Positions 2,496 to 64,000 of a DNA stretch of 64,000 bases are shown here, in pieces. The position numbers and the translations under genes were made by a program. The notes below the pieces were generated by a model. That model was not told the DNA's origin. It did no database searches and saw only the letters and a program-made list of their open reading frames with translations. The stretch spans positions 115,237 through 179,236 of the forward strand of contig JBFWJS010000005.1 in NCBI GenBank assembly GCA_050253075.1. Direction: 5' to 3'. The stretch comes from Deferribacterales bacterium (lineage in GTDB: Bacteria; Chrysiogenota; Deferribacteres; Deferribacterales; Geovibrionaceae). Position 1 is the stretch's first letter. Every line of letters begins with the position of its first letter.

Positions 2496-4155
2496 AGGTC
2501 TCCACCCTGTTTCGTCCGTTATTTTTTGCGCTGTAGAGAGCTTTGTCCGCAGAGACCATTAGTGATTCGAGGGAGTCATAACGCTCATATGCGCAGACTA
2601 TGCCTATGCTTATGGTACAGCTTATAAGTTCGCCTTCGGCATCCATCTTTGCACTCTCCACCAGCTCCCTTATGCGCTCCGCTACGAGGCGTGCTTCGTC
2701 AGGGTCTGTCTCTACGAGCACAGCCGCAAACTCCTCTCCGCCCAGACGACCAAAAAGGTCATTGTCTCTCAGTGCATTAGCACATATATCCGCAATATTC
2801 TGCAACACCAAATCGCCTATGTGGTGTCCGTATGTGTCGTTTACAGATTTGAAATGGTCGATATCCATCATCAGCAGACAGGCGTTGTGCTTATAGCGGA
2901 TGCTTCGCTGAAGCTCTTTTTCGCCCAGTTCCATAAAGTGACGCCTGTTGCTGACACCTGTCAGCTCGTCTATCATGGCTATCTTCCGCAGTTTTTCCTC
3001 TCTGTTGGAGACCTCGTTATCGTAATAGACAAAAACCTTCGCCATGTCGGTTATCTCGTCATTACCGGAGGTGTCTATATCTACATCGTCACCAGCCAGC
3101 CTGCCGAGTATAGCTTTGTTCAGCCTCATCAGCCTCTGAACCAGATTCTTTCTGAAATAGACGACCACAAAGCCAGACGTCATAAAAGCACCGATGGAAA
3201 CAACTGCGAATATCAGAGTCATCTGACCTATCCTTTCAGACAGCAGCCTCGAATTATCGGCGGTATAGTTGATCAGGGTATTAAAGCCTGAAGTGTTTCT
3301 GTTTTTGAAGTCTTCGACCATATTACGGGTGAAATTGCCCCGTCCGTATTTCTGCAGGCTGACCTTTATCGCTTCCTCTATTTTATCCACCAGCCCGTCA
3401 TCGGAAATGACAAAATCAGAGAGCTGTTCTTCCACAGCCTTCATTTTTAAGCGCAGGTCTGCGGGCATATCGCCGGATATCTTTTCAAGATTTGCGAAGT
3501 CTCTGCTGAGGCTGTTGCGCAGTATCTTTATCTTATACATGGCGTCGATGGTGCCCGCCTGATTAGCCTTGTTTATGATGGCGACCATATGCCCAGTCCA
3601 TGTGGAAAGTCCGGAGTATGTCTTCTGGTCTGAGATGGTCACACGTGTGTCCTGCTCGAATTTTATGATCTCTTCGGAAAAGTCGAACAGCCTGCTCATC
3701 AGTTCCTGTATTCCTGACGAGACCGCCACGTTCTCTGTTACCATATCGTTCAGCTCTTCCAGAGTGCTGTTTATGACCTCTATCTCATTCGACAGAGTTT
3801 CATTCAGCTCAAAGTCCGAGCCGACTATCCTGCCTATCTCCTCCATGCTCTGCTCGATATTGCCGTACGCCAGCCTCTGTACAGGGCTGGACTCCGCAGA
3901 TATGAGCCTCTCTGTCTCACTCAGCACATGGCTGATGAGGTTGTTCAGCTTCGCCCTGCGTGTGATGTCGGGGAGGCCCTTATTCGAAATATCTTTCATA
4001 GCAGAATGAAAGCTGTGAAAACCGATAAGCGCAATGCCGGACACGGCGACAAGCGCTATGACTATCGCAATGAGCCCGCCGGTGATCTTCTTGGCTATAC
4101 TCTGCTTTTTACCGTTTAAAATTTTTAAAATCTCTCTACTCCAAAAAAATAACAA
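2473..4155 (-). CDS. membrane diguanylate cyclase (periplasmic helical sensor, HAMP, GGDEF)
   Basis: Two TM segments, HAMP (GNDEITDMA), DELTGVSNRR, DIDHFKSVNDTYGH, I-site RDND and GGEEF. Start codon uncertain. Confidence 0.9.
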   Translation of the reverse strand: MLFFWSREILKILNGKKQSIAKKITGGLIAIVIALVAVSGIALIGFHSFHSAMKDISNKGLPDITRRAKLNNLISHVLSETERLISAESSPVQRLAYGNIEQSMEEIGRIVGSDFELNETLSNEIEVINSTLEELNDMVTENVAVSSGIQELMSRLFDFSEEIIKFEQDTRVTISDQKTYSGLSTWTGHMVAIINKANQAGTIDAMYKIKILRNSLSRDFANLEKISGDMPADLRLKMKAVEEQLSDFVISDDGLVDKIEEAIKVSLQKYGRGNFTRNMVEDFKNRNTSGFNTLINYTADNSRLLSERIGQMTLIFAVVSIGAFMTSGFVVVYFRKNLVQRLMRLNKAILGRLAGDDVDIDTSGNDEITDMAKVFVYYDNEVSNREEKLRKIAMIDELTGVSNRRHFMELGEKELQRSIRYKHNACLLMMDIDHFKSVNDTYGHHIGDLVLQNIADICANALRDNDLFGRLGGEEFAAVLVETDPDEARLVAERIRELVESAKMDAEGELISCTISIGIVCAYERYDSLESLMVSADKALYSAKNNGRNRVETFKISPAE

Positions 4156-44963: not shown

Positions 44964-46070
44964 TCAGATCACAGGCACGCCGAACCTTTTCGCCACCTCA
45001 GCCTTATCCACATCAAAGCCGAGCTCTATAGCATCTTTTATAACATCCCAGTCGGCCTCCACCTTCATATCCAGTATGAAAGCAGGCACAGGCGCATCGC
45101 CGAAGTTCAGATCGACTATCCATCTAAGCAGTGTCCTCGTAAGCGTCTCCGACAGCGCCCCCGCTATCTTATAGCTCTTTGTCTGCAGTGTCTCGAGATG
45201 CTGCTGAGCCAGAGAATACGAGCCGTTTGTGGATGTGTCGCTGGTGAGTATCTCGCCTGTCACGGCCTTTGATATCTCCGTATTGCATATGTTCACCAGC
45301 TCGGAAAAGTCCGCCGATGTACCCTTTGTCTCCAGCACCTGCACGCTGTCCACATTTGCCAGAGCCACAGCTGCATCTGACTGTATATTATAAAGATTTT
45401 CTGCCAGTTCTTTTGCCCTTGCCCTGCTGTCTGCATCGTCTATGGAGTCAAATAGAGCGAGCACCGTCGGCACGCCGTACTTCTCTGCCACTGTCAGCCA
45501 ATACCTGAACCCCGCCTTTTTAAACATCCACGGCCAGTAGCATTTTGACAGAACGGGTGTGCCGTAGGGGTTCTCATTCTTCGGGCTGTTTCGGTGTACG
45601 ACAAACTTGTACTCCTCCTCCAGAGGTATAGACACGGCGCCGTCCGCCAGTGCCAGCCCGCCGTCGCTTGTGAATGCAAACCTTGAAGGCTTCCGCCCCA
45701 TAGCGTTCACGGGTATCCAAGCCCCTTCTCTCTCTTCCCATATGATCTCTATCACGCTGAAGCCGTATTCCACGGCCATCATCATATCCTGCAGAAGCTG
45801 TTTCACGCCGAGCCCGTTCAGACAATCCTTCACAAATGCGGCTATACCTGCGGATTCGTCGTCCATATCCTTCGCACGCACGTCCCACTTCATGGCAAAG
45901 ACCCTGTCTTTCAGCTGTTCGAGCTTTGCGTGTATGTGGGCATCCTGAAGCATCTCGTCAAAGATGCTCATGTTCACCCCTGTCTTACCGAAAAGCACGT
46001 CTGGGTTTGTCATCATCCCCATAGACGTCACGTCTGTATTCTTTGTCAGCACACTTGTTAATCTGCTCAT
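44964..46070 (-). CDS. phage portal protein, DUF935 / Mu gp29-like
   Basis: DAHIHA, AVEYGFSVIEIIW, NPYG.P.L..CYWPW.FKK, EKYGVP, NTEISKAVTGEILT, HLE; 368 aa. Confidence 0.88.
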   Translation of the reverse strand: MSRLTSVLTKNTDVTSMGMMTNPDVLFGKTGVNMSIFDEMLQDAHIHAKLEQLKDRVFAMKWDVRAKDMDDESAGIAAFVKDCLNGLGVKQLLQDMMMAVEYGFSVIEIIWEEREGAWIPVNAMGRKPSRFAFTSDGGLALADGAVSIPLEEEYKFVVHRNSPKNENPYGTPVLSKCYWPWMFKKAGFRYWLTVAEKYGVPTVLALFDSIDDADSRARAKELAENLYNIQSDAAVALANVDSVQVLETKGTSADFSELVNICNTEISKAVTGEILTSDTSTNGSYSLAQQHLETLQTKSYKIAGALSETLTRTLLRWIVDLNFGDAPVPAFILDMKVEADWDVIKDAIELGFDVDKAEVAKRFGVPVI

Positions 46071-46085
46071 ATCTATCTCCTTTCA

Positions 46086-47486
46086 TTAATATTTTTTGAA
46101 CATATCTCCGCTCTTTCGCCCCGCTCCCGAGAATGACGCCGAAGGCTTCACCCGTCTTTCCGTCTGGCTGAGAGCCTGTGTCATGGCATCCACCATGTCG
46201 TCATTTTTCCCGCCCGGGAATAATGCCGCCTCGTCCATCAGCTCCTCGGAGAACTTTGCCCCCCGTTTCAGATAGACATTCCCCGCCTCGAGCATAGGCG
46301 TGACGGCTATCGCCCTCGCTGTCTTGCTCCCCTGCGGATTCACGGGGATGAGCCCCTGTATCTCATTTTTCAGAGCGGATATCACAGCGGGGCCGTTCGC
46401 CTTATCTTCAATGTATTTAGCACGTGCCTGCGGGTACTTTTCCGTCATCATGCGCAGGGCTCGCAGGGCAGACATAAAGTCCATCCGCCCACGCACCTGA
46501 TCCACAAGGTATCTCTCCGTGCCCCGAATCCCCCACACCTGACCGACCACAAAGTCTGAGCCGTCACCTCCGGAGAATGTCATATCCCACGACTGCACCA
46601 TCTGCTCAAAGGCAGGCTCCGCATCGTAAAAGCGGAACCACGACTTTTTGAAAACTGCTCCGTCCTCGGGGGCTGGTCTCTGCTGATAGAGTGCGTTCCA
46701 AACACGGGAGCCCACTGCGGAGCGTATCTGTGCGAGGGCGTCTTCGTCATATTTCTCAGCCCAGAGCGGTTCACCCACGGTACGGAATGCCTCGTCCTCC
46801 TCTGCTATTGCGGGGAAGCTGACCACCTGCCAGCCGTCTCTGTCGGCATTCAGCAGTCTGCCTGCGAGGTCGTCCTCGTGCCAGCGGGTGAGTATGACGA
46901 CTATCCGTCCCCCCTTCTCTATCCTTGTGTACAGGGTGGACTGATACCAGTCCCACACCTTGTCACGATAGTTCTTGCTGTCGGCGTCCTCCTGATTTTT
47001 AAACGGGTCGTCGATGATGAGCAGGTCGCCCCCCATCCCCGTTATCGAACCGCCAACCCCCGCTGCGACATAGCCGCCGCCGTCTGCGGTCTCCCATCTG
47101 TCTGCTGCCTTTGACCTTCCGCTCAGCCCAGTGCCGAACGTCAGGCGGAATTTTGGATCTGCTACGATATCCCGCACCTTTCTGCCGAAGTTCTCCGCAA
47201 GTCGGGCACTGTATGATGTGGCTATCACCCGCTTTGTCGGGTGTCTGCCCAGAAACCAAGCGGGGAAACGCACGGATGCCAGCTCGCTCTTCCCGTGGCG
47301 CGGGGGCATGAGTATCATCAGCCTGCCGTCAGTCCCTGCCTCCAGCTCGGTGAGCTTATCCGCCAGCAGTCGGTGGTGCCAGTTCGGCTCGTATCCTCTG
47401 TATGTCAGCTTACAGAACGGGATGAGGCTCTCTCGGGCGAGCTTCAGCGCATAAAGTTTTTCAAAGTTTTCACTGCTTAGCTTCAT
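46086..47486 (-). CDS. phage terminase large subunit (ATPase plus RNase H-like nuclease)
   Basis: Walker A MPPRHGKSE, Walker B LIIDDP, TRWHEDDL, ALYQQRP, nuclease SWD...D...IEDKANG...DDMVDA. Confidence 0.93.
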   Translation of the reverse strand: MKLSSENFEKLYALKLARESLIPFCKLTYRGYEPNWHHRLLADKLTELEAGTDGRLMILMPPRHGKSELASVRFPAWFLGRHPTKRVIATSYSARLAENFGRKVRDIVADPKFRLTFGTGLSGRSKAADRWETADGGGYVAAGVGGSITGMGGDLLIIDDPFKNQEDADSKNYRDKVWDWYQSTLYTRIEKGGRIVVILTRWHEDDLAGRLLNADRDGWQVVSFPAIAEEDEAFRTVGEPLWAEKYDEDALAQIRSAVGSRVWNALYQQRPAPEDGAVFKKSWFRFYDAEPAFEQMVQSWDMTFSGGDGSDFVVGQVWGIRGTERYLVDQVRGRMDFMSALRALRMMTEKYPQARAKYIEDKANGPAVISALKNEIQGLIPVNPQGSKTARAIAVTPMLEAGNVYLKRGAKFSEELMDEAALFPGGKNDDMVDAMTQALSQTERRVKPSASFSGAGRKSGDMFKKY

Positions 47487-47919
47487 GCATTATCGCTTTG
47501 GCATCCTCTACGCTCAGGTTATCCAGCTCACTCATAAGGTCGGCTATATTACCGTCAGCAGATTCGTCTTTGAGGAATTCGTCGGGGGATTTGCCTATGC
47601 AGATGTCCTTATAGTTTTTCACTGTTTTCGAATGCAGTTCCACATCACGCAGATTCTCACACTCGTTGAGGAGTACATCCGCCTTTTCCAGCCCTGCCAT
47701 TGTGCTGTTGCATATGGCATCCAGCATCTTCACCCGATGATTTTTCAGCCTTCGGATTGTCTTATCCGTTTCGGGGCGTTTCCATTTTTCGGCATCGGCT
47801 CTGTTCTTCACCGTCTCTGTTTTTATGCCGTATTCCTCTGACAGCTCGGACAGGTCATATACACCGTCCTCGTATTCACTGCGCATGGATGTCCATGTTT
47901 CCTTCGTTATTCTGCCCAT
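47470..47919 (-). CDS. probable terminase small subunit
   Basis: N-terminal HTH-like W..MR.EYE.G...L.EL...YGI..TV..RA..EKW; overlaps the terL start; GGAG RBS. Confidence 0.7.
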   Translation of the reverse strand: MGRITKETWTSMRSEYEDGVYDLSELSEEYGIKTETVKNRADAEKWKRPETDKTIRRLKNHRVKMLDAICNSTMAGLEKADVLLNECENLRDVELHSKTVKNYKDICIGKSPDEFLKDESADGNIADLMSELDNLSVEDAKAIMHEAKQ

Positions 47920-47943: not shown

Positions 47944-47997
47944 GGATTCTACGCAGAAATTTGAATTAATATGTTTAAACACGATAGACTTAGAAAC
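47944..47997 (-). promoter_or_regulatory. shared late-type promoter motif, copy 1 (packaging operon)
   Basis: Minus strand GTTTC-N14-TTAAACATAT-N16-GTAGAATCC; same spacing as 57792-57845. Confidence 0.7.
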
Positions 47998-48031: not shown

Positions 48032-49171
48032 ATGAACACAGGTGATATATACTATTTAAAACGAGAGTCAGAGTGTGCCTATATGATCAGAAAAGTTATT
48101 ACAGACGTCTATGAAGACATCCATTTCAGTGATAAATACGACACTGAGCAGATAAACCTGCTGCTGAAAGAACTGGACGTGCGCCATGCGCATTTCTCCG
48201 GGCTGCCTATCGTGCCCGAGGTTCGCAGCTTCCTTAACGGCGAGCTCCGCACACAGTCCATATACTCCACCGCCGCAATCGGAAAGCCCGATATGGAGGA
48301 GGAAGACGTGCGCAATTTCCTCGCAGGGAACCCGCACGAGCTGGACGAGACACGCTCCCGCATAGTGAATAACATCAGGCGCACATTTGAATTCGTCGAT
48401 AAAAACAGAACGACTTTCGAGCTGACCACCGAAAACCTGCGCAAGCTCCACATCATGCTCGTGATAGACACGGCTGAGGGGCTCCCCGGCGTATACAGAT
48501 CTAAGGACCGCTCAGAGGTAAACATAGACTATAAGCCCCCGAGGGGCTCTATGGACGAGCTGACCAAAGAATTCTGCGACTGGTTCGCCAGCTCCGACAT
48601 GCAGAAGCATCACCCTGCCGTTAGGGCGTTTCTCGCTCATTACCACATAGGTATGCTTCAGCCTTTCAGCAACGGCAACGGGCGTGTGGCACGCACTCTG
48701 GAGGCTATCGTGCTGGAGAACGCAGATATGCCGTACCTCACCCATGTGCTGTCTCAATATTATAAAAGAAACAGAAAAGACTATATAAAAGCATATATCA
48801 AAAACGAAAAGACGGGCGGATTCGACATGACGCCGTTCCTCGCATTCTGCCTCGAGGGCTCCGTGCGTGCGTATAAGCTGATAACAGACATGGCTGTCAC
48901 AGGGCTCCGTGCCATCAGCGTGCGTGAATACATCCGCAGACTCAGGACAGAAAAGAAAATCACCGAACGCCAGCGTGACCTGCTGGAGATAATATATCAG
49001 TACGACAAGCCATTCGACCTGCACGACCTGCTCACGAACCCTATATTCGCAGGGCTCTACCGCAGTGTGACAGAAAATACCGCACGCAATGACATAAAGC
49101 GCATGAAAGAACTGAGCCTCGTGACACAGACTCAGGGCGGATATATCTTTAACCGCTTCGTGCTCGGATAG
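48032..49171 (+). CDS. degenerate Fic-domain protein with C-terminal winged HTH (Fic-3)
   Basis: PGVYR, YKPP, motif LQPFSNGNGRVAR, C-terminal ITERQ...TENTARNDIKRM. Confidence 0.85.
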   Translation: MNTGDIYYLKRESECAYMIRKVITDVYEDIHFSDKYDTEQINLLLKELDVRHAHFSGLPIVPEVRSFLNGELRTQSIYSTAAIGKPDMEEEDVRNFLAGNPHELDETRSRIVNNIRRTFEFVDKNRTTFELTTENLRKLHIMLVIDTAEGLPGVYRSKDRSEVNIDYKPPRGSMDELTKEFCDWFASSDMQKHHPAVRAFLAHYHIGMLQPFSNGNGRVARTLEAIVLENADMPYLTHVLSQYYKRNRKDYIKAYIKNEKTGGFDMTPFLAFCLEGSVRAYKLITDMAVTGLRAISVREYIRRLRTEKKITERQRDLLEIIYQYDKPFDLHDLLTNPIFAGLYRSVTENTARNDIKRMKELSLVTQTQGGYIFNRFVLG

Positions 49172-53647: not shown

Positions 53648-53899
53648 TCAGTCTATATTCATACAGCTCCGCTCCTGAAGGAACTCCTCAAGGCTCTTTT
53701 TCGGCACACGCCATCTGCCGTTTCCGTCTATGCTGGTGTTCCATGCGATGAGCTTTGCGCTTTTTATCCATCTGCGTACCGTGATGTGACTGACCTGAAG
53801 TATCTTCGCCACCTGATATATGGTCAGGTTGCTCCCGGGCATTGATTCCACCTGTCTGCTTATACTATCCTCATTCCATACTTTGCACGGAGCCGACAT
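53648..53899 (-). CDS. HTH_17 / excisionase-type (MerR-like) DNA-binding protein
   Basis: LTIYQVAKILQVSHITVRRWIKSAKLIA...GRWRVPKKSLEEFL; GGAGG RBS before the ATG at 53899. Confidence 0.85.
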   Translation of the reverse strand: MSAPCKVWNEDSISRQVESMPGSNLTIYQVAKILQVSHITVRRWIKSAKLIAWNTSIDGNGRWRVPKKSLEEFLQERSCMNID

Positions 53900-53915
53900 A
53901 CCGCACCTCCAAATA

Positions 53916-54000
53916 ACATAATTTATTTGTACATAAATACACAATATGCATGTATTTTTCAACACATATTTTCTGTTTGTTTTTCACAGAATATATCTGT
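53916..54000. promoter_or_regulatory. four ACA-N9-TGT operators between divergent HTH genes
   Basis: ACATAATTTATTTGT 53916, ACACAATATGCATGT 53939, ACACATATTTTCTGT 53962, ACAGAATATATCTGT 53986; spacing 23, 23, 24 bp. Confidence 0.8.
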
Positions 54001-54011
54001 ATATATTATAT

Positions 54012-54371
54012 ATGGGTGTAGGACACAGATTAAAAGAGCTCCGCAGAGAGCTGAAGATCAGTCAGAAAGAACTAGGAAATCTGCTGAATGTCGCACAGCA
54101 GGTGGTCAGTTATTATGAAAAAAGCGGTAATATAGATGCGTCAAAACTGTCCATCATCTCTGAAAAATACAGCATAGATATCAGATACTTCTTCGAAGAC
54201 AAACCTTTAAACTCTTACAGAGGCACAAACCTTCAGCTTAATTCCTCTTCAGACTTTATAATCCCCGCCGGATGGGACGACATACTCCATGAAATGGCGG
54301 AGATAGAATACGGCAAGGTGCGGATAATAGAATCTGTTGTCAGAACATTGATTAAAGAATTTAAGAATTAA
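54012..54371 (+). CDS. XRE-family (cI-like) repressor
   Basis: GHRLKELRRELKISQKELGNLLNVAQQVVSYYEKS HTH. No SD, so possibly leaderless. No S24 autopeptidase domain. Confidence 0.88.
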   Translation: MGVGHRLKELRRELKISQKELGNLLNVAQQVVSYYEKSGNIDASKLSIISEKYSIDIRYFFEDKPLNSYRGTNLQLNSSSDFIIPAGWDDILHEMAEIEYGKVRIIESVVRTLIKEFKN

Positions 54372-54404: not shown

Positions 54405-56513
54405 ATGGATATTAGCGGCGAAAACGCCCCATTTATTTTACGTTTTTCTAAATACATGTATCGAACAAACCCGAGAATAACAAGAGGAGGACCGCCCAGA
54501 ACAGCCTAAGGCCAGCCTCTGAATATAGATAAAGCCGTAGCAGGCATACGAAATGCGCATACAGCATACTGCCGTTTCGACTTTAATAAAGACCTCCCAC
54601 TTTACTCACTGCTGACCTTGAAAAAAGGCTCACTCTCAAAGTCGAACAGATACCACTTCCTGAAAACCGCAGATATAAAGCTGACGGGCAGTTTGTCCCC
54701 TGAGGACCTCATCTTTGCGCTAAAGGACGATGCAGATATCTCCAGATTTGAAAACATACTGCGCTACAGTCGAAACATAAACTTCCGAAAGTCTCTGACC
54801 CATATGTCAGACATAAGAGCCCTACTGCCGGAGGATAAGCTGAAAAACTCAGTTACCGAAGGCGACATAGTAATCCAGCTGTTTAATAACGACAACTACG
54901 GCAAACTACTCCACTTTCTCAGAGACGGGCTGAATATAAGAGCAGGCGACATCTTTTCCGTAGGCAGTCTGAACATCATAAAAGCAAATATAAACGACCT
55001 GTCTAAGCTGGAAACTCTAGCATCACACTCTCTGATAAGGTCTGTGGAAAGCGCTCACAGCATCCATCTGGAAGAGCATTATATAAGGCACGCTCCGCTG
55101 CCGCTGAACTGTGTGAAAGAACGAGCCCTTCAAAAAGCATATCCCAAGGCCGCCCTGATAGACTCAGGCGTGGCATCTGACTCCCTGCTGAAAGAGTGGG
55201 AGATATCCACGGAAAGCTACATCCCTGATGAAAAGCGAAATCCAGCCCACGGCACTTTTGTCTGCGGGCGAATGCTTCAGGAAGGGGAAGAGTTCGGCGG
55301 GATACTGTACCTGAACGCTGAAATGATGCCTTCGGACGGAATTTTATCCATCAGCGATTTCTACAGAAACATGACAGACATCCTGCAGAAATACTCAAAG
55401 ACCATAAAAGTTTATAACATCTCCATGGGTACATCTGCTCTGCTCCGAGACGAATTTTCCTACTCCGCATACATACTGGACACACTGCAGAAGGAATATG
55501 ACGTGCTCTTCATAATATCCGCAGGCAACTGTGCACCTGACGGGGAGGCTCCGAGGTCACTCACTGCACCTGCCGAAAGCGTACACTCCGTCAGCGTCGG
55601 TTCCGTGGCGCACACAGACACAAATATCCAGAAGAAGCACACCCCATCCCTTTTCACAAGGCACGGCCCGGCACCGCTCGGATTCATAAAGCCCGACATC
55701 GCCGCATACGGAGGGGCTCATGCTGAGCATTTCGGCAGGCTGAAACCTGTGGGAGTATTCAGCATCGGCGTGCAGAACGAGCTGGCAGAAGACATCGGAA
55801 CCTCCCACGCCGTCCCTATGGTCACATCAAAAGCGGCAAAGCTGTATCACCAATACAGCCATGCATTTAAAAGCCCCGACATAACAAAAACATTGCTGAT
55901 ACACGATGCATTCCTAAAAAAAAGCTCCAAAGAGCCCGACATATACTGCGGATACGGCATATCTGCCGATGGAGACAATGACGAAAACCATGTAACATAC
56001 ATCCATCAGGGGCTGGTAAAGCCTGAGCAGATAGTAGAACTGCCCGAGATACCTATCCCACCCGATATGATAAAGGACGGAGCCGTCTATGGAGGCATCG
56101 TCCTGACACTTGTTTATAAGACACACGTGGACATAGCTTTCCCTCATTACTACTGCATGACAATGCTGGATATATCACTCGGGTATTACGACGGGGGGAA
56201 GTGGATATCTGTGATGACGGCGAAAGATACGGCGGGGCTCCCCAAAGGAAAAGATGCACAGGAGCTCTTTAAATGGCAGCCTGTAAAAGTGTTCAGCAGG
56301 GTATTTAAAAATAAGAAAATGCCCGACAAGCTATTACTAAGAATAATACCGTCTAAAAGAGATTTTTATGACAAAATGGAAGACATTTCATACTCATTCG
56401 CTATATCTTTTGTGAGCAAAGAGGAAAACCTGTTGAAAGGTATTCTCGACAGACCGTCTGATTTTTCACACATTCTCGAATCTGCCCATGACTTGTGGAA
56501 AACATGTGGATAA
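54405..56513 (+). pseudogene. IetS-like S8 (subtilisin-like) serine peptidase with an in-frame TAA at 54507-54509
   Basis: Triad IDSGV / HGTFV / GTSHAVP and oxyanion SAGN are intact in the 54618-56513 ORF. The same frame extends to the ATG at 54405 (MDISGENAPFILRFSKYMYRTNPRITRGGPPRTA*GQPLNIDKAVAG...) with only one stop. Confidence 0.6.
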
Positions 56514-57791: not shown

Positions 57792-57845
57792 GTTTCAGGT
57801 TTAACCGCCCTTAAACATATCCATTATTTCATTCCTGTACCATCC
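57792..57845 (+). promoter_or_regulatory. shared late-type promoter motif, copy 2 (head/tail operon)
   Basis: GTTTC-N14-TTAAACATAT-N16-GTACCATCC; same architecture as 47997-47944. Confidence 0.7.
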
Positions 57846-57875: not shown

Positions 57876-58568
57876 ATGAAACTGGAACTGGCGAAAACCG
57901 GAAACCATAACGGCATCACCATAACAGAAGAAGACCTGAGAGACATGGCAGCGACCTTTACAGGCGATGTGCCCGTCACAATAGGTCACGAGGCCGACGA
58001 CTCCATGCCCGCATACGGCTGGGTCACCGCTCTAGAAGTGTCCGAAGACGGACAGACACTCACAGGCGAACTGGAGCTGAACGAAGAGCTCCAGCAGGCT
58101 ATCGCAGAGGGACGTTACAAGAACTGGAGCATAGGCGCAGGCAGAAACGCAGACGAGCAGATGTATCTGCACCATGTGGCGTTCCTCGGCGCTGTCCCCC
58201 CGATGATAAAGGGGCTGAAGCTCATCGAGATGGGCGACAGGTCAGACATCGTCACATTCGCCATAAACGGCGGATGCTCACTCACCCTCTCCGATGCGGA
58301 GCTCTCCGAATACGCATCACTGCGTAAGGAAAAGAAGAGCGCACTCATCAAAAAGCTCTCCGACGCATCAGCGGGGAAGATCCCCTTCGGCAAGCGTGAG
58401 GAGCTCATCAGATTCGCAGACTCTCAGCTCTCCGCAGGCGGCGAAGAGATAGTCTCCATGCTGGCGGAGATATTCGAAAGCGTGAAACACCCAGTGAGAG
58501 AAGGGATATCCCAAGCCATCAGAACAAAAAACGCTGAAACGTCCGTAAACGTATTCAGCAAAATCTAG
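57876..58568 (+). CDS. Mu gpI-like head maturation protease / short scaffold
   Basis: PVTIGH...PAYGWV...GRYKNWSI...YLHHVAFLGAVPP.IKGL; AAGGAGG RBS. Confidence 0.82.
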   Translation: MKLELAKTGNHNGITITEEDLRDMAATFTGDVPVTIGHEADDSMPAYGWVTALEVSEDGQTLTGELELNEELQQAIAEGRYKNWSIGAGRNADEQMYLHHVAFLGAVPPMIKGLKLIEMGDRSDIVTFAINGGCSLTLSDAELSEYASLRKEKKSALIKKLSDASAGKIPFGKREELIRFADSQLSAGGEEIVSMLAEIFESVKHPVREGISQAIRTKNAETSVNVFSKI

Positions 58569-58577
58569 GAGGAATAA

Positions 58578-58940
58578 ATGGCAACAGTAAACGGCGTTAT
58601 CGGTCAGCAGACCATCACAGACAAATCTGTCATCGACGACAGACACCCCGCAGTGATCCGCTTTATGCAGTTCAAAGCAGACAACGGCATCATCGGAGCA
58701 GGCGAGATACTCGCACTGGATTCTAACGGCGACGTGGTCTCATACGACCCTGCATCAGGCGGAACAGAGGCATCACCTATCGGCGTGTGCTCATCACAGA
58801 CAGACACGGCGAAAGATACCGCAGGCGGAGTCATCATCCATGGAACAGTAGTAGGCGCAAGCCTTCTCACCCTCGGCGTAAAAGCTGTCTCCGCAGAGAT
58901 AGAAGCCCTCGAGGCAAACACACTCATCTGGTCATTCTAG
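58578..58940 (+). CDS. head decoration protein
   Basis: 120 aa between protease and capsid genes; AGEILA...PIGV...VIIHGTV pattern. Confidence 0.7.
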   Translation: MATVNGVIGQQTITDKSVIDDRHPAVIRFMQFKADNGIIGAGEILALDSNGDVVSYDPASGGTEASPIGVCSSQTDTAKDTAGGVIIHGTVVGASLLTLGVKAVSAEIEALEANTLIWSF

Positions 58941-58952
58941 GAGGATACATAA

Positions 58953-59936
58953 ATGATACAGCTTGATCTCAGCAGATATTTCACAACAGACTCACTCATC
59001 AAAGCACTCACAAACATGCCGGAGCTTAAATCCCCCGTCATGGACAGCATCTACACGGCGGACAAACGCAGAAACCACCCTCTGCCGACAGTCTCCGTCA
59101 GCGACCTCCAACAGGCGGTTAAGAACATAGCTATCACAAAAAGAGGCGGAGAACCTGTGCCTGTCTATGAAGAAAGCATGAACATCACACACATCGAACC
59201 TCAGCCGTTCAGACCTTCCGAAAGACTCAACGGAGTGGACGTGAATAACCTCAAGCTCCTCGACGAGACAGGCGTGGAGCTCCTCGTAAATAACAAGATA
59301 GACAGACTCCGCCGCATCGTCAGAGCATCCACAGAGGCTATGGCGGCACAGTCGCTCACAGGCTCTATCGCATACCCTATGGCTATGGACGGCGGATACG
59401 GCACATACAGCGTGGACTTCGGCTCCACACTCAGCCACTCCGTCGGCACTGCATGGACAGACTCGGGCATCACACTCGACGCCGTCCTCGCAGACCTCAT
59501 CAGCATGGAGGCAAACATCCAGGCTGAGACACACTACGGCTCCGACATCCGCTTCTGGGCGGGTCAGGACGCCTTCATGGCTCTGGCAAAGATCGTCCAG
59601 GACGTCAACAACACAGGCATCACGGGCATGATAGACGCAAGAACCATCAACATAGCAGGATTCAGGGTAGAGCTTCAGAACAGCTCATACACAGACCTCG
59701 CCACAGGCTCGCAGACAAAGGTCGTGGATACTTCAAAGGTGATGGCGTTCGCCGCCGATGCACCTTTCGAGCTGGTCTACTCTGTCATAGACGACCTCGA
59801 CAGCAACCTTACTGCCATGCCTTTCTTCGTAAAGAGCGTGAAAGACCCGAGGTCCTCAAGCATCGAGATCATCGCAGAGAGCAAACCGCTCCCTGTTCCG
59901 TTCACAAAGGGTATTTGCTGGGCAACAGCCGTATAA
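58953..59936 (+). CDS. major capsid protein (lambda gpE-like family)
   Basis: 327 aa; RG...P, LRRIV..TEAMAAQSLTG, VDFG, C-terminal ESKPLPVP. Confidence 0.82.
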   Translation: MIQLDLSRYFTTDSLIKALTNMPELKSPVMDSIYTADKRRNHPLPTVSVSDLQQAVKNIAITKRGGEPVPVYEESMNITHIEPQPFRPSERLNGVDVNNLKLLDETGVELLVNNKIDRLRRIVRASTEAMAAQSLTGSIAYPMAMDGGYGTYSVDFGSTLSHSVGTAWTDSGITLDAVLADLISMEANIQAETHYGSDIRFWAGQDAFMALAKIVQDVNNTGITGMIDARTINIAGFRVELQNSSYTDLATGSQTKVVDTSKVMAFAADAPFELVYSVIDDLDSNLTAMPFFVKSVKDPRSSSIEIIAESKPLPVPFTKGICWATAV

Positions 59937-59952
59937 GGCTCGACTCAAAAAT

Positions 59953-59981
59953 CGGCAGGGGTGCTCTGATGCGCCCCGCCG
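59953..59981. other. GC-rich hairpin after the capsid gene
   Basis: CGGC(A)GGGGTGC / GCGCCCCGCCG stem with no U tract on the plus strand. Confidence 0.45.
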
Positions 59982-60002
59982 CCCTATCAAAAGAGGTAAA
60001 CC

Positions 60003-60359
60003 ATGCTGATAGACATATATGAGCTTCAGGAAATGATACAGACAGAGGACTACGACGCCATATGCCGTGGTGACGATGCCGTTGCGGAAGAATCACTGGA
60101 ATCTGCCCGTGCGTATGTAGGACTGGCCGCTGAGAAATTCGGCATTGAATACGACGAGGAAGACCCAGCCATAAGGCTCGCCGTGAAAAAGTGGGCTCTG
60201 GCGCAGATGTACATCTTCGCAGCGGAGTGGGAAACAGCCCAAAGGTATAAGGACGAATGCAACGAAGTGCTCGCACCACTTGCCCCCGCATCCGAACAGG
60301 GGGGAAGAGTCTACTCTTCGACCGTTTCGGGGAGCACCTCGTGGAAAGGATATTACTGA
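60003..60359 (+). CDS. head-tail connector, Mu gp36/DUF1320-like
   Basis: 118-aa helical protein right after the capsid gene; A..YV...A..LY...RY pattern. Confidence 0.62.
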   Translation: MLIDIYELQEMIQTEDYDAICRGDDAVAEESLESARAYVGLAAEKFGIEYDEEDPAIRLAVKKWALAQMYIFAAEWETAQRYKDECNEVLAPLAPASEQGGRVYSSTVSGSTSWKGYY

Positions 60360-60730
60360 TGAAGACAGCTCAGGAGATAAAGCAGGCGATAGCCGACTCG
60401 CTGAATACCTGCGGCGTGTTCGACTCTGTGCTGACACCGTCCGACAACCGAAAGGATGCGACCATAATGCGTGAGCCGTCTGCTGCGGTCTATTACAGCG
60501 GATGCGTGATAAGGGACGATAACGGCGTGCAGGTGACAGAATACGCATACATCATACGCATGAAGTTCCTGAAAATAGGCGTAAACGAAACAGCCGACGA
60601 CATAGAACTCGCCGTTAACGCCCTGAAAGAGCTGGAGCCCGCATCCCTCGCCCAGTCGGGCAAAACAGACACAAACAGCAGATCGGCATCATACACCATA
60701 GACATAACATTTGCGGGGTGCAGGGGATGA
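60359..60730 (+). CDS. probable tail completion/terminator protein (gp37-like)
   Basis: TGATG-coupled start MKTAQEIKQAIADSL; PSAAVYYSG; position in the operon. Confidence 0.55.
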   Translation: MKTAQEIKQAIADSLNTCGVFDSVLTPSDNRKDATIMREPSAAVYYSGCVIRDDNGVQVTEYAYIIRMKFLKIGVNETADDIELAVNALKELEPASLAQSGKTDTNSRSASYTIDITFAGCRG

Positions 60731-61095
60731 TACGCATATCAGACATAACACTCCCAAAGTCCGCAGTGTGGGCAAACGAGATATCAAACAGCACACATAA
60801 AACCGAGCGGACAGCATGCCCCTACGGGACAGAAGTCATCTTTGCAGACATACAGGATGCTGAGATAGACATATACATACCAAAGATATCTGGCGAGCTG
60901 ACCCGTGCGGACGTGCAGAGGCTGAAAGCTCTAGCAGACGGCACAAACGAGATAAGCATAAACATAAACGGCACAGACAAAACGTGCGTCTTCAGGCATT
61001 CGGACACCGCACTCGACCTGCACCCGATAAGCCCGAAACAGACACAAACGCACACCGACAGCTACTACGGATATATAAGGCTTCTGGAGGTTTAA
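60727..61095 (+). CDS. tail-tip (distal-tail-like) protein of Mu-like siphophage type
   Basis: ATGA-coupled start MIRISDITLPKSAVWANE...TRADVQRLKALAD...VFRH...IRLLEV. Confidence 0.55.
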   Translation: MIRISDITLPKSAVWANEISNSTHKTERTACPYGTEVIFADIQDAEIDIYIPKISGELTRADVQRLKALADGTNEISININGTDKTCVFRHSDTALDLHPISPKQTQTHTDSYYGYIRLLEV

Positions 61096-62064
61096 ATGAA
61101 TCAGACAGACATAAAAATACTGAAAGCAGAAACGATAACAGACGACAGCATAAACGGCGGGAGGGTCAGCTTCGCCTCTGAGGTGATCAGCGGAGTGAAG
61201 TTTAACCTGTTCCCCAGAGTGACATCATCCGAAAGGGACAGTGGAGTGACAAGATACCGTAAGGCCTTCATCGGCAACATGAACCCGCTGGGCGAGACGG
61301 CATACGGCGCATCTGTCGCCATCAGTACCCCCGGCAACGGCGAAGACAGGTTCTATATAAAGCAGGGAACACACTCAGACACACAGGACGACCTGACATC
61401 GGACGGATGGACAGGATGCGGAACGCTGGCATACACGGCATCCGCTGGGGACACATCCATACAGGTAATTTTTAAATCCAGCGACTACGCCATCCCCGAG
61501 GGCGCTATGCTCATAATCAAAGATGATCTGGAAAACACCGTGAACATACGCACATCGGCATCGGCACCGTGCGCAGAGTGGAACGGCACAACGGCGACAA
61601 TACAGCTCGAATCCCAGCTCCCAGACGGATTCTCTTCATACAGCACACACGTGGGCGTGATGATAGAAACGGGCGACCTAGCTCCTGAGATGACTGACAT
61701 ATCGGTATCATCCTCATCAGGCACATTCGACGAGAGCATCGTAACCCTCTATAACGGCGGAACAATAGCGGACACATACTCAGTCACATTCGACAGTGCA
61801 TTCAGCTTTGCCGTGTCGGGTGCGGAAACAGGCGCACTGGCATCGGGCACCACAGGCTCCGCATATGAGCCGTCTAACCCGCAGACAAACAAACCTTATT
61901 TCAGCATACCTTCTGAAAGCTGGTCGGGGATATTCGAAGCTGGCGACACTGTGACATTCACCACTGCGCCTTCGTGTGCTGGCTTCTGGATAAAAGAGGC
62001 TGTCCCCGCAGGGTGCGCACACGAGCCGAACAACAGCTTCAATCTGGACTGGATGATAGATTAG
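61096..62064 (+). CDS. phage tail/baseplate structural protein
   Basis: N-terminus DIKILKAETITDD...GGR...EVISGVKFNLFPRV...ER..G...RKAF resembles tail proteins of transposable siphophages as I recall them. Confidence 0.65.
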   Translation: MNQTDIKILKAETITDDSINGGRVSFASEVISGVKFNLFPRVTSSERDSGVTRYRKAFIGNMNPLGETAYGASVAISTPGNGEDRFYIKQGTHSDTQDDLTSDGWTGCGTLAYTASAGDTSIQVIFKSSDYAIPEGAMLIIKDDLENTVNIRTSASAPCAEWNGTTATIQLESQLPDGFSSYSTHVGVMIETGDLAPEMTDISVSSSSGTFDESIVTLYNGGTIADTYSVTFDSAFSFAVSGAETGALASGTTGSAYEPSNPQTNKPYFSIPSESWSGIFEAGDTVTFTTAPSCAGFWIKEAVPAGCAHEPNNSFNLDWMID

Positions 62065-62071
62065 GTGACAC

Positions 62072-63301
62072 ATGGCTAACCTTACATACGCGAATTTCGC
62101 ACTATCAAAGCTGACACAGGCACTCTCTGCATCGGGCACAGCCGTACACATAGCAGACGACGCCCTCTTCCCCGACGGATACTTCACCGCCGTGATATGG
62201 AGCGCAGGGGTCGGCTCACCTCTGGAGGATGCAGACAGCGAGCTGCTGACGCTGATGCGCACATCCGCAGGAGTTTTCGAAGCGGTGCGGGGAGATGAAG
62301 GGACAACTGCCCGTGACTGGGCGCAGGATTCCCTGATAGCAAACGTGGTGACGGCGGAAACTATGGAATACATATACTCCGCAGCTGGGAACACGGCATC
62401 CGTCACCGTGATGTCCGACACCGCATACACCATGGAAAGGGACGACACAAAGATGCTGTGTACATTCACCCCCGCAGAGGGGGAAAAGTCTGTCACCCTC
62501 CCCGCATCGGATGTGTGTGAAGGGCTGACATATACGATACTCAACAGAGGCATATATCCGCATCAGACACTAAAGCTATATCCGAACGCATCCGACGGAT
62601 ATGCACATACTGCCGAAGGATACATAAGCATACCTTCGGGCGGGTCTGCACAGCTTATACACAGCGATGACGGATGGGTCGTCATATCAGCAAACGCCGA
62701 CAGCTACAAAAACCTGCGCATAATAGACGAAGACATGCCGAGCGTATCATTCGGCGAGGGCACACTGTATGCAGACACATCGGCAGAGGATATAAACATC
62801 ACCCTCCCCTCGGCAAAGGAATACTGCGGTGTCCCCCTCAAGATATATAAATTCTCCGACGACGCAAACAAGGTGATCATCAGCGGATACGAAGGGGACA
62901 GCACCCCCGTAGAGCTGACGGAGCAGTGGCAGTCCGCCGTGTTTGTCATGAGCCAGAGCGGGACAGTATATATGACAGACGGTCCGCAGGCTTCAGCACC
63001 TTCATCAGGGACATCCGAGGGGGACGTGATCTTCCTGTCTGAAAACAGGTTCCTCGACGGCAGCGAACGCTTCATCTTCGTGACGACAGGGTCAGTGGGG
63101 ATACACTCATACCTGCCCGAGCCGAGCGCACACACGGGAAAGATGGTAACGGTGAAGAAGATAGACTCTGGCTCAGGCGTTGCCATCATCTTCCCCATAG
63201 ACAGCACAATAGACGGTGCAGCAGACTTGGTGGAGCTCACACAGCAGTGGCAGTACGCCACATTTGCCTGCGGCGGAGACGGCTGGTACAGGGTAGGCTG
63301 A
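62072..63301 (+). CDS. tail fibre / receptor-binding-like protein with three internal repeats
   Basis: N-terminal ANFA.S.L...FP...VRGDEGTTARDW anchor; three TLP/YLP...G...W domains. Confidence 0.62.
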   Translation: MANLTYANFALSKLTQALSASGTAVHIADDALFPDGYFTAVIWSAGVGSPLEDADSELLTLMRTSAGVFEAVRGDEGTTARDWAQDSLIANVVTAETMEYIYSAAGNTASVTVMSDTAYTMERDDTKMLCTFTPAEGEKSVTLPASDVCEGLTYTILNRGIYPHQTLKLYPNASDGYAHTAEGYISIPSGGSAQLIHSDDGWVVISANADSYKNLRIIDEDMPSVSFGEGTLYADTSAEDINITLPSAKEYCGVPLKIYKFSDDANKVIISGYEGDSTPVELTEQWQSAVFVMSQSGTVYMTDGPQASAPSSGTSEGDVIFLSENRFLDGSERFIFVTTGSVGIHSYLPEPSAHTGKMVTVKKIDSGSGVAIIFPIDSTIDGAADLVELTQQWQYATFACGGDGWYRVG

Positions 63302-63302
63302 T

Positions 63303-64000
63303 ATGTTTATACAATGCGGAGCACCGCTTTTAAACATATCTCTGTCCTCACAGTCAGGGCTGAACGGCAGTCTGAGCATCACAGCCCCCTTTGTGATAGA
63401 CGGCAGTGTGGAGCTTGCCTCCGCACTGTCCATTTCGGACAGCCTGAACCTGCCTATACCGGAGGGGCTGAACGGCGAGCTGTTGATATACGCACTCTTT
63501 GCCGAGGTATACAGAGGCTCGGATAATATCCCCGTCAGTCTGTCTGCTATGGATGAAGCCACTGTCGCCTGTAATACGGTGAACGCACTCGCCCTTGATG
63601 GAGCCGTATCTATATCCTCAGAGCTGGCAGAAGCCTTTGAGGGCAGTCTGACATCCTTAAACACCATAGGCGAGTATGCACTCAGAGCATCAACTGACAT
63701 CAGGATACCGTTCGGGCTGTATGACACATCAGGAAGCTGTGAAATACGCCTTCCCCAAACCACAGCCCACGTCATAAAGGACGAGCTGGAAGTATATGCA
63801 GACGGCATCGACATCACAAAGCTGTTAAGGAGCGCAGAGATAAAACTCTTCGGCGGAAATGAACCGATCAGGCTGAAAGCATTGCTGAAACCTCTGAAAA
63901 ATACGCCGAAGTACATCGACATCTTCATCAACGGTGAGGCATACGCCTTCCGCATTGATACGGCGGAGCATTCCTCTGAGCAGTGCACCCTGACTGGCAG
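63303..64000 (+). CDS. further phage tail-region protein (partial; runs off the right edge)
   Basis: ATG 63303 immediately after the previous stop (MFIQCGAPLLNISLSSQSG...); the frame appears open to the window end. Confidence 0.55.
   Translation, partial: MFIQCGAPLLNISLSSQSGLNGSLSITAPFVIDGSVELASALSISDSLNLPIPEGLNGELLIYALFAEVYRGSDNIPVSLSAMDEATVACNTVNALALDGAVSISSELAEAFEGSLTSLNTIGEYALRASTDIRIPFGLYDTSGSCEIRLPQTTAHVIKDELEVYADGIDITKLLRSAEIKLFGGNEPIRLKALLKPLKNTPKYIDIFINGEAYAFRIDTAEHSSEQCTLTG

Follow-up and report, generated by a model that had tools for sequence, protein, structure and literature searches.

A likely phage-immunity-type switch for a dispersed, domesticated Mu-like element in Deferribacterales

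A divergent pair of regulator genes, one encoding an XRE repressor and the other an HTH_17 protein, would be the master switch of a domesticated, Mu-like and GTA-like element, with XRE turning it off and HTH_17 turning it on; we put the probability of this reading at about two in three. The pair lies in a 64,000-nucleotide stretch of a Deferribacterales genome (the window), and it is likely that a conserved switch of the phage-immunity type governs this dispersed element. Proof of a cryptic GTA is difficult to obtain when no means of turning it on is known. Here, the sequence names a candidate one-gene inducer (the 83-aa HTH_17 protein), a candidate one-gene repressor, their sites and the target operons, so that a single overexpression or knockout could put the GTA hypothesis for this family to a direct test. 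If the reading is true, a protein of the Xis/BldC type joins the master late activators of domesticated phages.

The regulator pair and its conservation in the family

The HTH_17 gene (53648..53899, minus strand; 83 aa) and the XRE repressor gene (54012..54371, plus strand; 119 aa) diverge across a gap of 112 bp (53900-54011). The HTH_17 product is a winged-helix protein of the Xis/BldC/RdfS type (PF12728, E 9e-13), assigned by Pfam and NCBIfam matches and also matching the excisionase families TIGR01764 and phrog_66; the fold of its predicted model matches BldC, RacA, Pukovnik Xis, P2 Cox and RdfS, weakly (E 0.01-0.05). The XRE product (PF01381, E 3e-9) matches the DNA-binding domain of ImmR in sequence (E 9e-5), and Gln29-Gln30 of its recognition helix are invariant. 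In the 434 repressor, a Gln-Gln pair reads ACA. As the original prediction had it, the repressor has no RecA-cleavable S24 domain (no Pfam match, and a modelled C-terminus of two helices) and no integrase adjoins the pair, the nearest tyrosine recombinase on the contig, the only recombinase type considered, being more than 150 kb away.

The HTH_17 gene has a Shine-Dalgarno sequence, GGAGG (53906..53910, minus strand), read from the sequence, and a purine-rich SD-like word lies upstream of its start in the aligned relatives. No SD-like word occurs in the 22 nt 5' of the XRE ATG in any of 16 genomes, and XRE Met1 is invariant across the aligned genomes. A database annotation of the repressor as a 141-aa protein was rejected: its upstream frame crosses the operators, is not conserved and is stopped in several relatives.

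The sample comprised 41 genomes of the order, 16 in the family and 25 in other families. XRE, HTH_17, the major capsid protein, the large terminase and an S8 protease were each found in all 16 family genomes, where the XRE and HTH_17 genes are always adjacent. In the 25 genomes from other families, capsid and terminase had no match, and XRE, HTH_17 and the S8 protease had only weak partial matches (in three, two and one genomes, respectively) and no ortholog. Thus the co-occurrence of the pair with the structural modules, proposed earlier as a check, holds in 16/16 family genomes versus 0/25 others. In genus g1 the modules fit into about 15 kb; in the four g2/g3 genomes that have them on one contig, they are separated by 40-80 kb. 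Wherever measurable, dN is well under dS: dN/dS is 0.03-0.36 for xre (9 pairs) and about 0.02-0.04 for HTH_17 (5 pairs), the remaining pairs being saturated or identical. These comparisons indicate that the pair is vertically inherited and conserved across the family. As would be expected of a GTA, the virion genes of this element are dispersed, vertically kept and under purifying selection.

Named relatives at 87-89% identity are Denitrovibrio, and repressor homologs carry the names Denitrovibrio and Seleniivibrio. On viral contigs, all relatives found were distant (4 loci for HTH_17 and 10 for XRE), and the major capsid protein had no match among annotated phages. An HTH_17 profile search of 1.84 billion representatives gave two full-length strong matches, the remainder being generic HTH_17 domains.

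HTH_17 might instead be the leftover excisionase of a decaying prophage, in a region without present function. The excisionase-family matches fit such an origin, as does decay within genus g1, with in-frame stops in the S8 gene (source genome, G000, and G001) and in terL (G001) and a split virion gene in G002. Yet no integrase lies within 150 kb, HTH_17 has the low dN/dS given above, and the operators are kept across four genera. This alternative is extremely unlikely, being largely refuted by such conservation, and the earlier view that HTH_17 is no excisionase gains support from the same distance to a recombinase and the same dN/dS.

G007 and G011 have a tract of about 6 kb in common (L051:1980-8520 vs L053) in which identity is 98-100%, compared with about 80-86% elsewhere; it has one dip near 2900-3400 and a longest identical run of 2,228 nt. 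The tract spans host genes, HTH_17, the operators and the 5' half of xre, and the switch is identical in both genomes. It may reflect recent recombination or an assembly artefact, and is compatible with gene transfer without proving it.

Operators and predicted promoters of the switch

The intergenic gap contains four ACA-N9-TGT palindromes, O1 to O4, starting at 53916, 53939, 53962 and 53986 with intervals of 23, 23 and 24 bp. This array, on which the original prediction was built, is conserved in all 16 family genomes: their 64 operator positions comprise 51 perfect sites, 12 with a single mismatch and one with two, so that 63/64 retain ACA and TGT with at most one mismatch. The O3-O4 interval is 24 bp in 16/16 genomes and the O2-O3 interval 23 bp in 15/16, and O1 and O2 are 23 bp apart in 11 genomes and 19 bp apart in the other five. 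Four such sites appeared in 0/20,000 dinucleotide shuffles of 53900-54014; some of this significance is lost because the motif was chosen post hoc, four copies of any trimer palindrome (any spacer of 3-15) being found in 2.5% of shuffles. Genome-wide, among 690 matches to ACA-N9-TGT, this is the only cluster of at least three sites within 100 bp. The repressor-side palindrome had been singled out as the most symmetric; O4 does have the longest perfect arms (5 bp), but O3 ties with it at 5/7 symmetric positions. O2 has the highest mean profile score of the four, and O3 is imperfect in G004.

Two promoters are predicted within the gap. That of the HTH_17 gene (53934..53962, minus strand) would consist of a -35 TTGAAA (53962-53957), a 17-bp spacer and a -10 TATTTA (53939-53934); the -35 begins with TTG in 16/16 genomes and with TTGA in 15/16, and the -10 is poor, its final T missing in 16/16. 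That of the repressor gene (53977..54005, plus strand) would consist of a -35 TTGTTT, a 17-bp spacer and a -10 TATATA, with TTG at the -35 in 11/11 g1 and g4 genomes and absent in g2/g3, and a -10 that begins with TAT in 16/16, 5-7 nt 5' of the ATG. A consensus promoter scan listed neither. The TATATT noticed earlier, at 54002, does stop 4 nt before the SD-less XRE ATG, and the -10 conserved across genomes is at 54000-54005. The repressor transcript would thus start at the ATG itself, and a leaderless mRNA, first proposed by analogy to cI, is likely in view of this -10-like box and of the missing SD in all 16 genomes.

In lambda, the operators are 17 bp long and separated by spacers of 6 and 7 bp, with OR3 located on PRM and OR2 bordering it (PMC1920246); by this geometry, O2 to O4 correspond to OR1 to OR3. 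O2 (53939..53953) lies inside the spacer of the predicted HTH_17 promoter, O3 (53962..53976) between the two predicted -35 boxes, and O4 (53986..54000) inside the spacer of the predicted repressor promoter. O1 (53916..53930), directly downstream of the predicted HTH_17 -10, is an extra site without a counterpart in lambda OR. The lambda-like spacing that had been pointed out is therefore apparent as tandem palindromes 23-24 bp apart over both predicted promoters.

XRE very probably represses via these four palindromes. In the OFF state, XRE dimers on O1 to O3 would block the HTH_17 promoter, and occupancy of O4 would limit the repressor's own leaderless transcript; XRE at O3 may also stimulate this transcript, as CI does at OR2. 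The HTH_17 gene runs head-on into a convergent gene at its 3' end in the source genome and is therefore likely to be the sole output of its promoter.

Late promoters of the structural and lysis operons

The likely target operons in the window encode the small terminase, large terminase and Mu-type portal (44964..47919, minus strand) and the protease, decoration protein, major capsid protein and further virion proteins (57876..64000, continuing past the window, plus strand). A separate Mu-like prophage in the source genome encodes portal, protease, decoration and capsid proteins that share 28-35% identity with the ones here. This prophage (G000:C1:586000-619500) has its own S24-less repressor and a Mor-family activator, and its head genes are distantly related to the domesticated module. 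A SoFic-like Fic gene (48032-49171), divergent from terS, is present in 11/11 g1 and g4 genomes and was not found there in g2/g3.

Both operons are preceded by the same kind of promoter. At terS-terL-portal (47946..47993, minus strand), phased C residues at 47993 and 47983 are followed by the box TTAAACATAT (47978-47969), 17 bp and a -10 TAGAAT; at the capsid operon (57796..57843, plus strand), phased C residues at 57796 and 57806 are followed by TTAAACATAT (57811-57820), 17 bp and a -10 TACCAT. A TTAAACATAT-like box, a spacing of 17-18 bp and TAnnnT are shared by the two modules in 22/22 cases from g1 and g4, and a variant box of the TAACAA type occurs at both modules in 10/10 cases from g2 and g3; the g2/g3 boxes, and four boxes of g4 lysis promoters, were located with patterns tuned by eye. 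The late promoter is thus a box plus a -10 with no -35 (TTG at the -35 in 0/48), and it occurs at terminase, capsid, lysin, RHH and tail modules. When the 48 late promoters, which form seven module-by-clade groups of kin and hence are not 48 independent cases, were aligned on the core C, a further C was found exactly 10 bp upstream in 47 and another 20 bp upstream in 27, compared with a background of 0.17. As in domesticated phages, a shared box for a presumed activator marks the likely target promoters.

The box also served as a search tool, leading to a lysis operon in the source genome and a separate tail operon in G004. When the source genome was scanned with the g1 and g4 late-promoter profile, a phage lysozyme operon ranked third and a 47-aa ribbon-helix-helix (RHH) gene fourth. 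The former (G000:C7:63399-64036, outside the window) encodes the lysozyme and a 59-aa phage protein, a possible holin, behind a late promoter. Lysozyme orthologs are present in 11/11 g1 and g4 genomes and 0/5 g2 and g3 genomes, and the late box is kept at all 11 (4 by the first pattern and 7 by a relaxed one); it was not found at four non-orthologous lysins. Thus, as in domesticated phages, the regulators are co-inherited with dispersed structural and lysis loci, for this lysin within g1 and g4. The RHH gene (G000:C3:158422-158565) is confined to genus g1, where it is present in 4/4 genomes with the late box kept in 4/4. In G004, a separate tail operon (G004:C1:2019600-2029500), encoding terminator, tube-like, chaperone-like and long proteins, follows a late-box-like promoter, whose box is a two-mismatch match to a pattern that is unselective in this genome. 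In most lysozyme orthologs, the 5' leader shows, by eye, a complementary heptamer pair around a GC-rich hairpin immediately 5' of the SD, which may act as an RNA control element.

The exact late-box pattern gave 10 matches in five genomes, all at module promoters, from which the pattern itself was derived. Among g1/g4 one-mismatch matches outside known modules (n=12), none was beside a phage-like gene. The g2/g3 box with two mismatches allowed was rejected as a search pattern, since it is unselective (5 matches in G004 vs 13 for the reversed control); of 20 such matches inspected, one led to phage genes.

Several observations point to HTH_17 as the reader of the box. BldC binds direct repeats head-to-tail, each subunit reading one C-G pair by Arg30 (PMC5859096), and RdfS activates promoters (PMC11963761); C residues phased by 10 bp are what a reader of the BldC/RdfS type would predict, and HTH_17 has an invariant Arg-Trp pair at the BldC-aligned position. 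Both the late box and the HTH_17 recognition helix differ between g1+g4 and g2+g3, and the operators and the XRE Gln-Gln pair are unchanged, although this co-variation is one phylogenetic split among related genomes. An activator of the Mor/C type was found in none of four relatives and, in the source genome, only within the Mu-like prophage; the Mor family alone was excluded among alternative activator types. Family scans of HTH_17 gave matches of the HTH_17/excisionase type only, and none to PrtN or GafY/Z. HTH_17 therefore probably activates late genes, and the original assignment to this role now appears likely from the shared box, its phased C and the missing Mor/C activator. In the ON state, removal of XRE would let HTH_17 bind head-to-tail on the 10-bp-phased box that replaces the -35, and box-bound HTH_17 would recruit RNA polymerase to the packaging, capsid and lysis operons.

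Could another protein, e.g., an unrecognised activator or a second regulator, read the late box, leaving HTH_17 as a mere Cro/Cox-like antagonist or auxiliary of a repressing XRE? A double-HTH XRE protein, whose S24-like domain has no catalytic Ser motif, is encoded about 8 kb past the window end (G000:C5:187605-188441, minus strand). It has full-length orthologs in 16/16 family genomes, in the family only, about 1.4-4 kb from the portal or from the end of the capsid operon where checked, and its domain order resembles that of RogA; HTH_17 proteins, moreover, can also repress (PMC11963761). However, neither operator nor late box was found upstream of this regulator in 6/6 genomes checked, symmetric XRE dimers would be expected on palindromes rather than on a 10-bp-phased direct repeat, HTH_17 is likely all that the repressed promoter expresses, and the switch has no conserved box of the HTH_17 type. 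Such a division of roles is unlikely compared with late activation by HTH_17. The late box does contain an operator-like ACA half-site, so that which protein occupies which site may be less clear-cut than this.

The repressor may also act directly at the capsid promoter. The 130 nt upstream of the capsid operon were scanned with an operator profile trained solely on switch operators, 726 AT-rich upstream windows of the source genome serving as background. A score of at least 10 was reached in 12/16 genomes (background 6/726), with two such sites in 10/16 (background 0/726); with the own genus left out of training, 12/16 capsid promoters still scored at least 8 (background 2-3%). The sites are at -69, -67/-66, -59, -37/-35 and -26, overlapping the late box or falling within the spacer, and this variety of positions suggests turnover. 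The profile found none in the source genome, G001 and G002. In most relatives, therefore, one or two capsid operators might provide a second lock, lost in the source genome. None of 16 terS promoters reached a score of 10. Repressor operators at the lysis promoter were considered and found unsupported (1/11 only, about 215 nt upstream), and isolated high-scoring matches elsewhere in the source genome are near or inside host genes. Within genus g1, this loss of capsid operators in three genomes accompanies in-frame stops in S8 and terL and the split virion gene noted above, and XRE divergence is faster.

Inducing signal, bistability and comparison with known systems

The pair had been described as stand-alone, which is too strong. 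An IetS-like S8 protease gene (54405..56513, plus strand; PADLOC IetS, E 7e-91) begins 33 nt after the repressor stop, the distance being 10-58 nt in 16/16 genomes, and is likely co-transcribed with the repressor gene. In this assembly it has an in-frame stop at codon 35 (54507-54509); G001 also has an in-frame stop, and the XRE-HTH_17 pair is intact in both genomes. No full IetA partner was detected with one IetA model in 4/5 genomes, and the IetA of G002 belongs with a second S8 copy. The protease is a candidate inducer or toxin; together with the RogA-like second regulator, it is a candidate source of the inducing signal.

Given this gene order, XRE might chiefly autoregulate an xre-S8 operon of a toxin-antitoxin-like or defence type, its phage link being shared ancestry only. 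The S8 gene remained next to xre in g2/g3, where the capsid operon has relocated to a distance of about 70 kb, and it is IetS-like without a linked IetA, as this alternative would have it. Such a role leaves the capsid-promoter operators of 12/16 genomes unexplained, however, and the S8 gene is interrupted in G000 and G001 where the pair is intact; the idea is very unlikely.

The pair had also been called bistable and SOS-independent. In a true lambda-type toggle of this kind, the two proteins would compete for the operators or bind each other, and a minority of cells would flip ON by chance. Such behaviour has a precedent in CP-933P, where four palindromes and a leaderless, S24-less repressor give bistability by same-site competition (PMC8630535), and O3 is placed where CI activates PRM (PMC1920246). 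The partner here, however, is a winged-helix HTH_17 protein, not a Cro-like reader of the same palindromes, and late-box scores within the switch are at background in 15/16 genomes, no such box being conserved; there is thus no sign of Cro-like feedback. The toggle reading is doubtful, and bistable expression, left unsupported by these scores, is equally so.

For SOS independence, the odds are about even. It had been deduced from the missing S24 domain; however, an XRE repressor of the ImmR type is cut by ImmA after DNA damage, under RecA control (PMC5812530), so the missing domain alone proves nothing on SOS. S24-less PaaR2, in turn, is unresponsive to mitomycin C (PMC8630535). No ImmA homolog (PF06114) lies beside the pair, and the family, found in 6/13 family genomes and weak in the source genome, is not conserved, in keeping with an SOS-independent toggle. 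LexA is present in 5/5 genomes. In three of these, all from g1/g4 and none from g2/g3, a GAAC-N4-GTTY box, which we take to be a Firmicutes-like LexA box, lies 5' of lexA; the source-genome candidate is upstream of lexA on G000:C6, at about 37650. The box is absent from 16 switches, which would also suit the toggle, and from 32 late promoters, yet also from the source-genome recA, and this test is weak because the box is recognisable in only 3/5 genomes and missing at that recA.

A fuller scenario can be drawn for an undescribed GTA of Denitrovibrio and relatives: a captured phage immunity switch in which a former excisionase-type protein is now master activator of five scattered late operons, the capsid operon is under a double lock by the repressor, a co-transcribed protease derived from the IetAS defence system removes the repressor without RecA, and a minority of cells flips ON. 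That all of this holds together is improbable.

The separate parts of the proposed master switch have precedents; the literature, at the level of titles and abstract openings and outside subscription papers and supplements, contains no match for their combination and lineage and no description of this element or switch. The likeness to lambda OR lies in operators whose centres are 23 and 24 bp apart (PMC1920246; PMC8630535), in one operator per promoter with one bordering the repressor -35, and in a leaderless repressor mRNA, which is predicted here. Here, however, the sites number four and are 15 bp long, where lambda has three of 17 bp, and there is no S24 domain, Cro-type partner, early operon, replication genes or integrase.

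In PrtR/PrtN and AlpR/AlpA (PMC12796719), RogA/GafYZ (PMC9632790) and PBSX Xre (PMC8987985), a repressor silences the activator of scattered structural and lysis loci, as would be the case here; the available text of these reports describes no HTH_17 activator or repressor operators at a capsid promoter. PrtR and AlpR self-cleave (PMC12796719). RogA, once offered as an XRE parallel, is a loose one, being LexA-like with an HTH and an inactive S24-like domain (PMC9632790). The repressor here does not have such an HTH-S24 architecture. The PBSX Xre switch has four operators.

Like ICEBs1 with its ImmR, ImmA and Xis, the locus here has a small XRE repressor, which would control an xis-type gene and whose own gene shares an operon with a protease gene (PMC5812530); the protease here is S8/IetS-like, not ImmA, and integrase and conjugation genes are absent. 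HTH_17 resembles BldC and RdfS in fold, in the Arg-Trp at the BldC-aligned position and in the 10-bp-phased C of its putative targets (PMC5859096; PMC11963761), with the late box an inexact match to the BldC motif AATT-N4-C (PMC5859096). It differs in having extra N- and C-terminal helices and in scoring 19.4 bits against the BldC family (NCBIfam NF033787), under the cut-off of 77.

The closest known switch in the available literature is PaaR2/YdaS of CP-933P in E. coli O157:H7, which has four palindromes, a leaderless repressor without a RecA-cleavage motif, and bistability that has been shown (PMC8630535). Its divergent gap is 97 bp, compared with 112 bp here, and both systems have four palindromes (equally spaced in CP-933P), an S24-less repressor and a leaderless repressor mRNA, predicted in our case. 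In CP-933P, which is a defective prophage, the repressor gene likewise heads an operon with a toxin-type gene (PMC8630535). The partner in CP-933P is a Cro-like competitor for the same sites, whereas here it is an HTH_17 winged-helix protein whose putative box is a different one and lies at remote late promoters, and unlike CP-933P, the element here is family-wide and dispersed.
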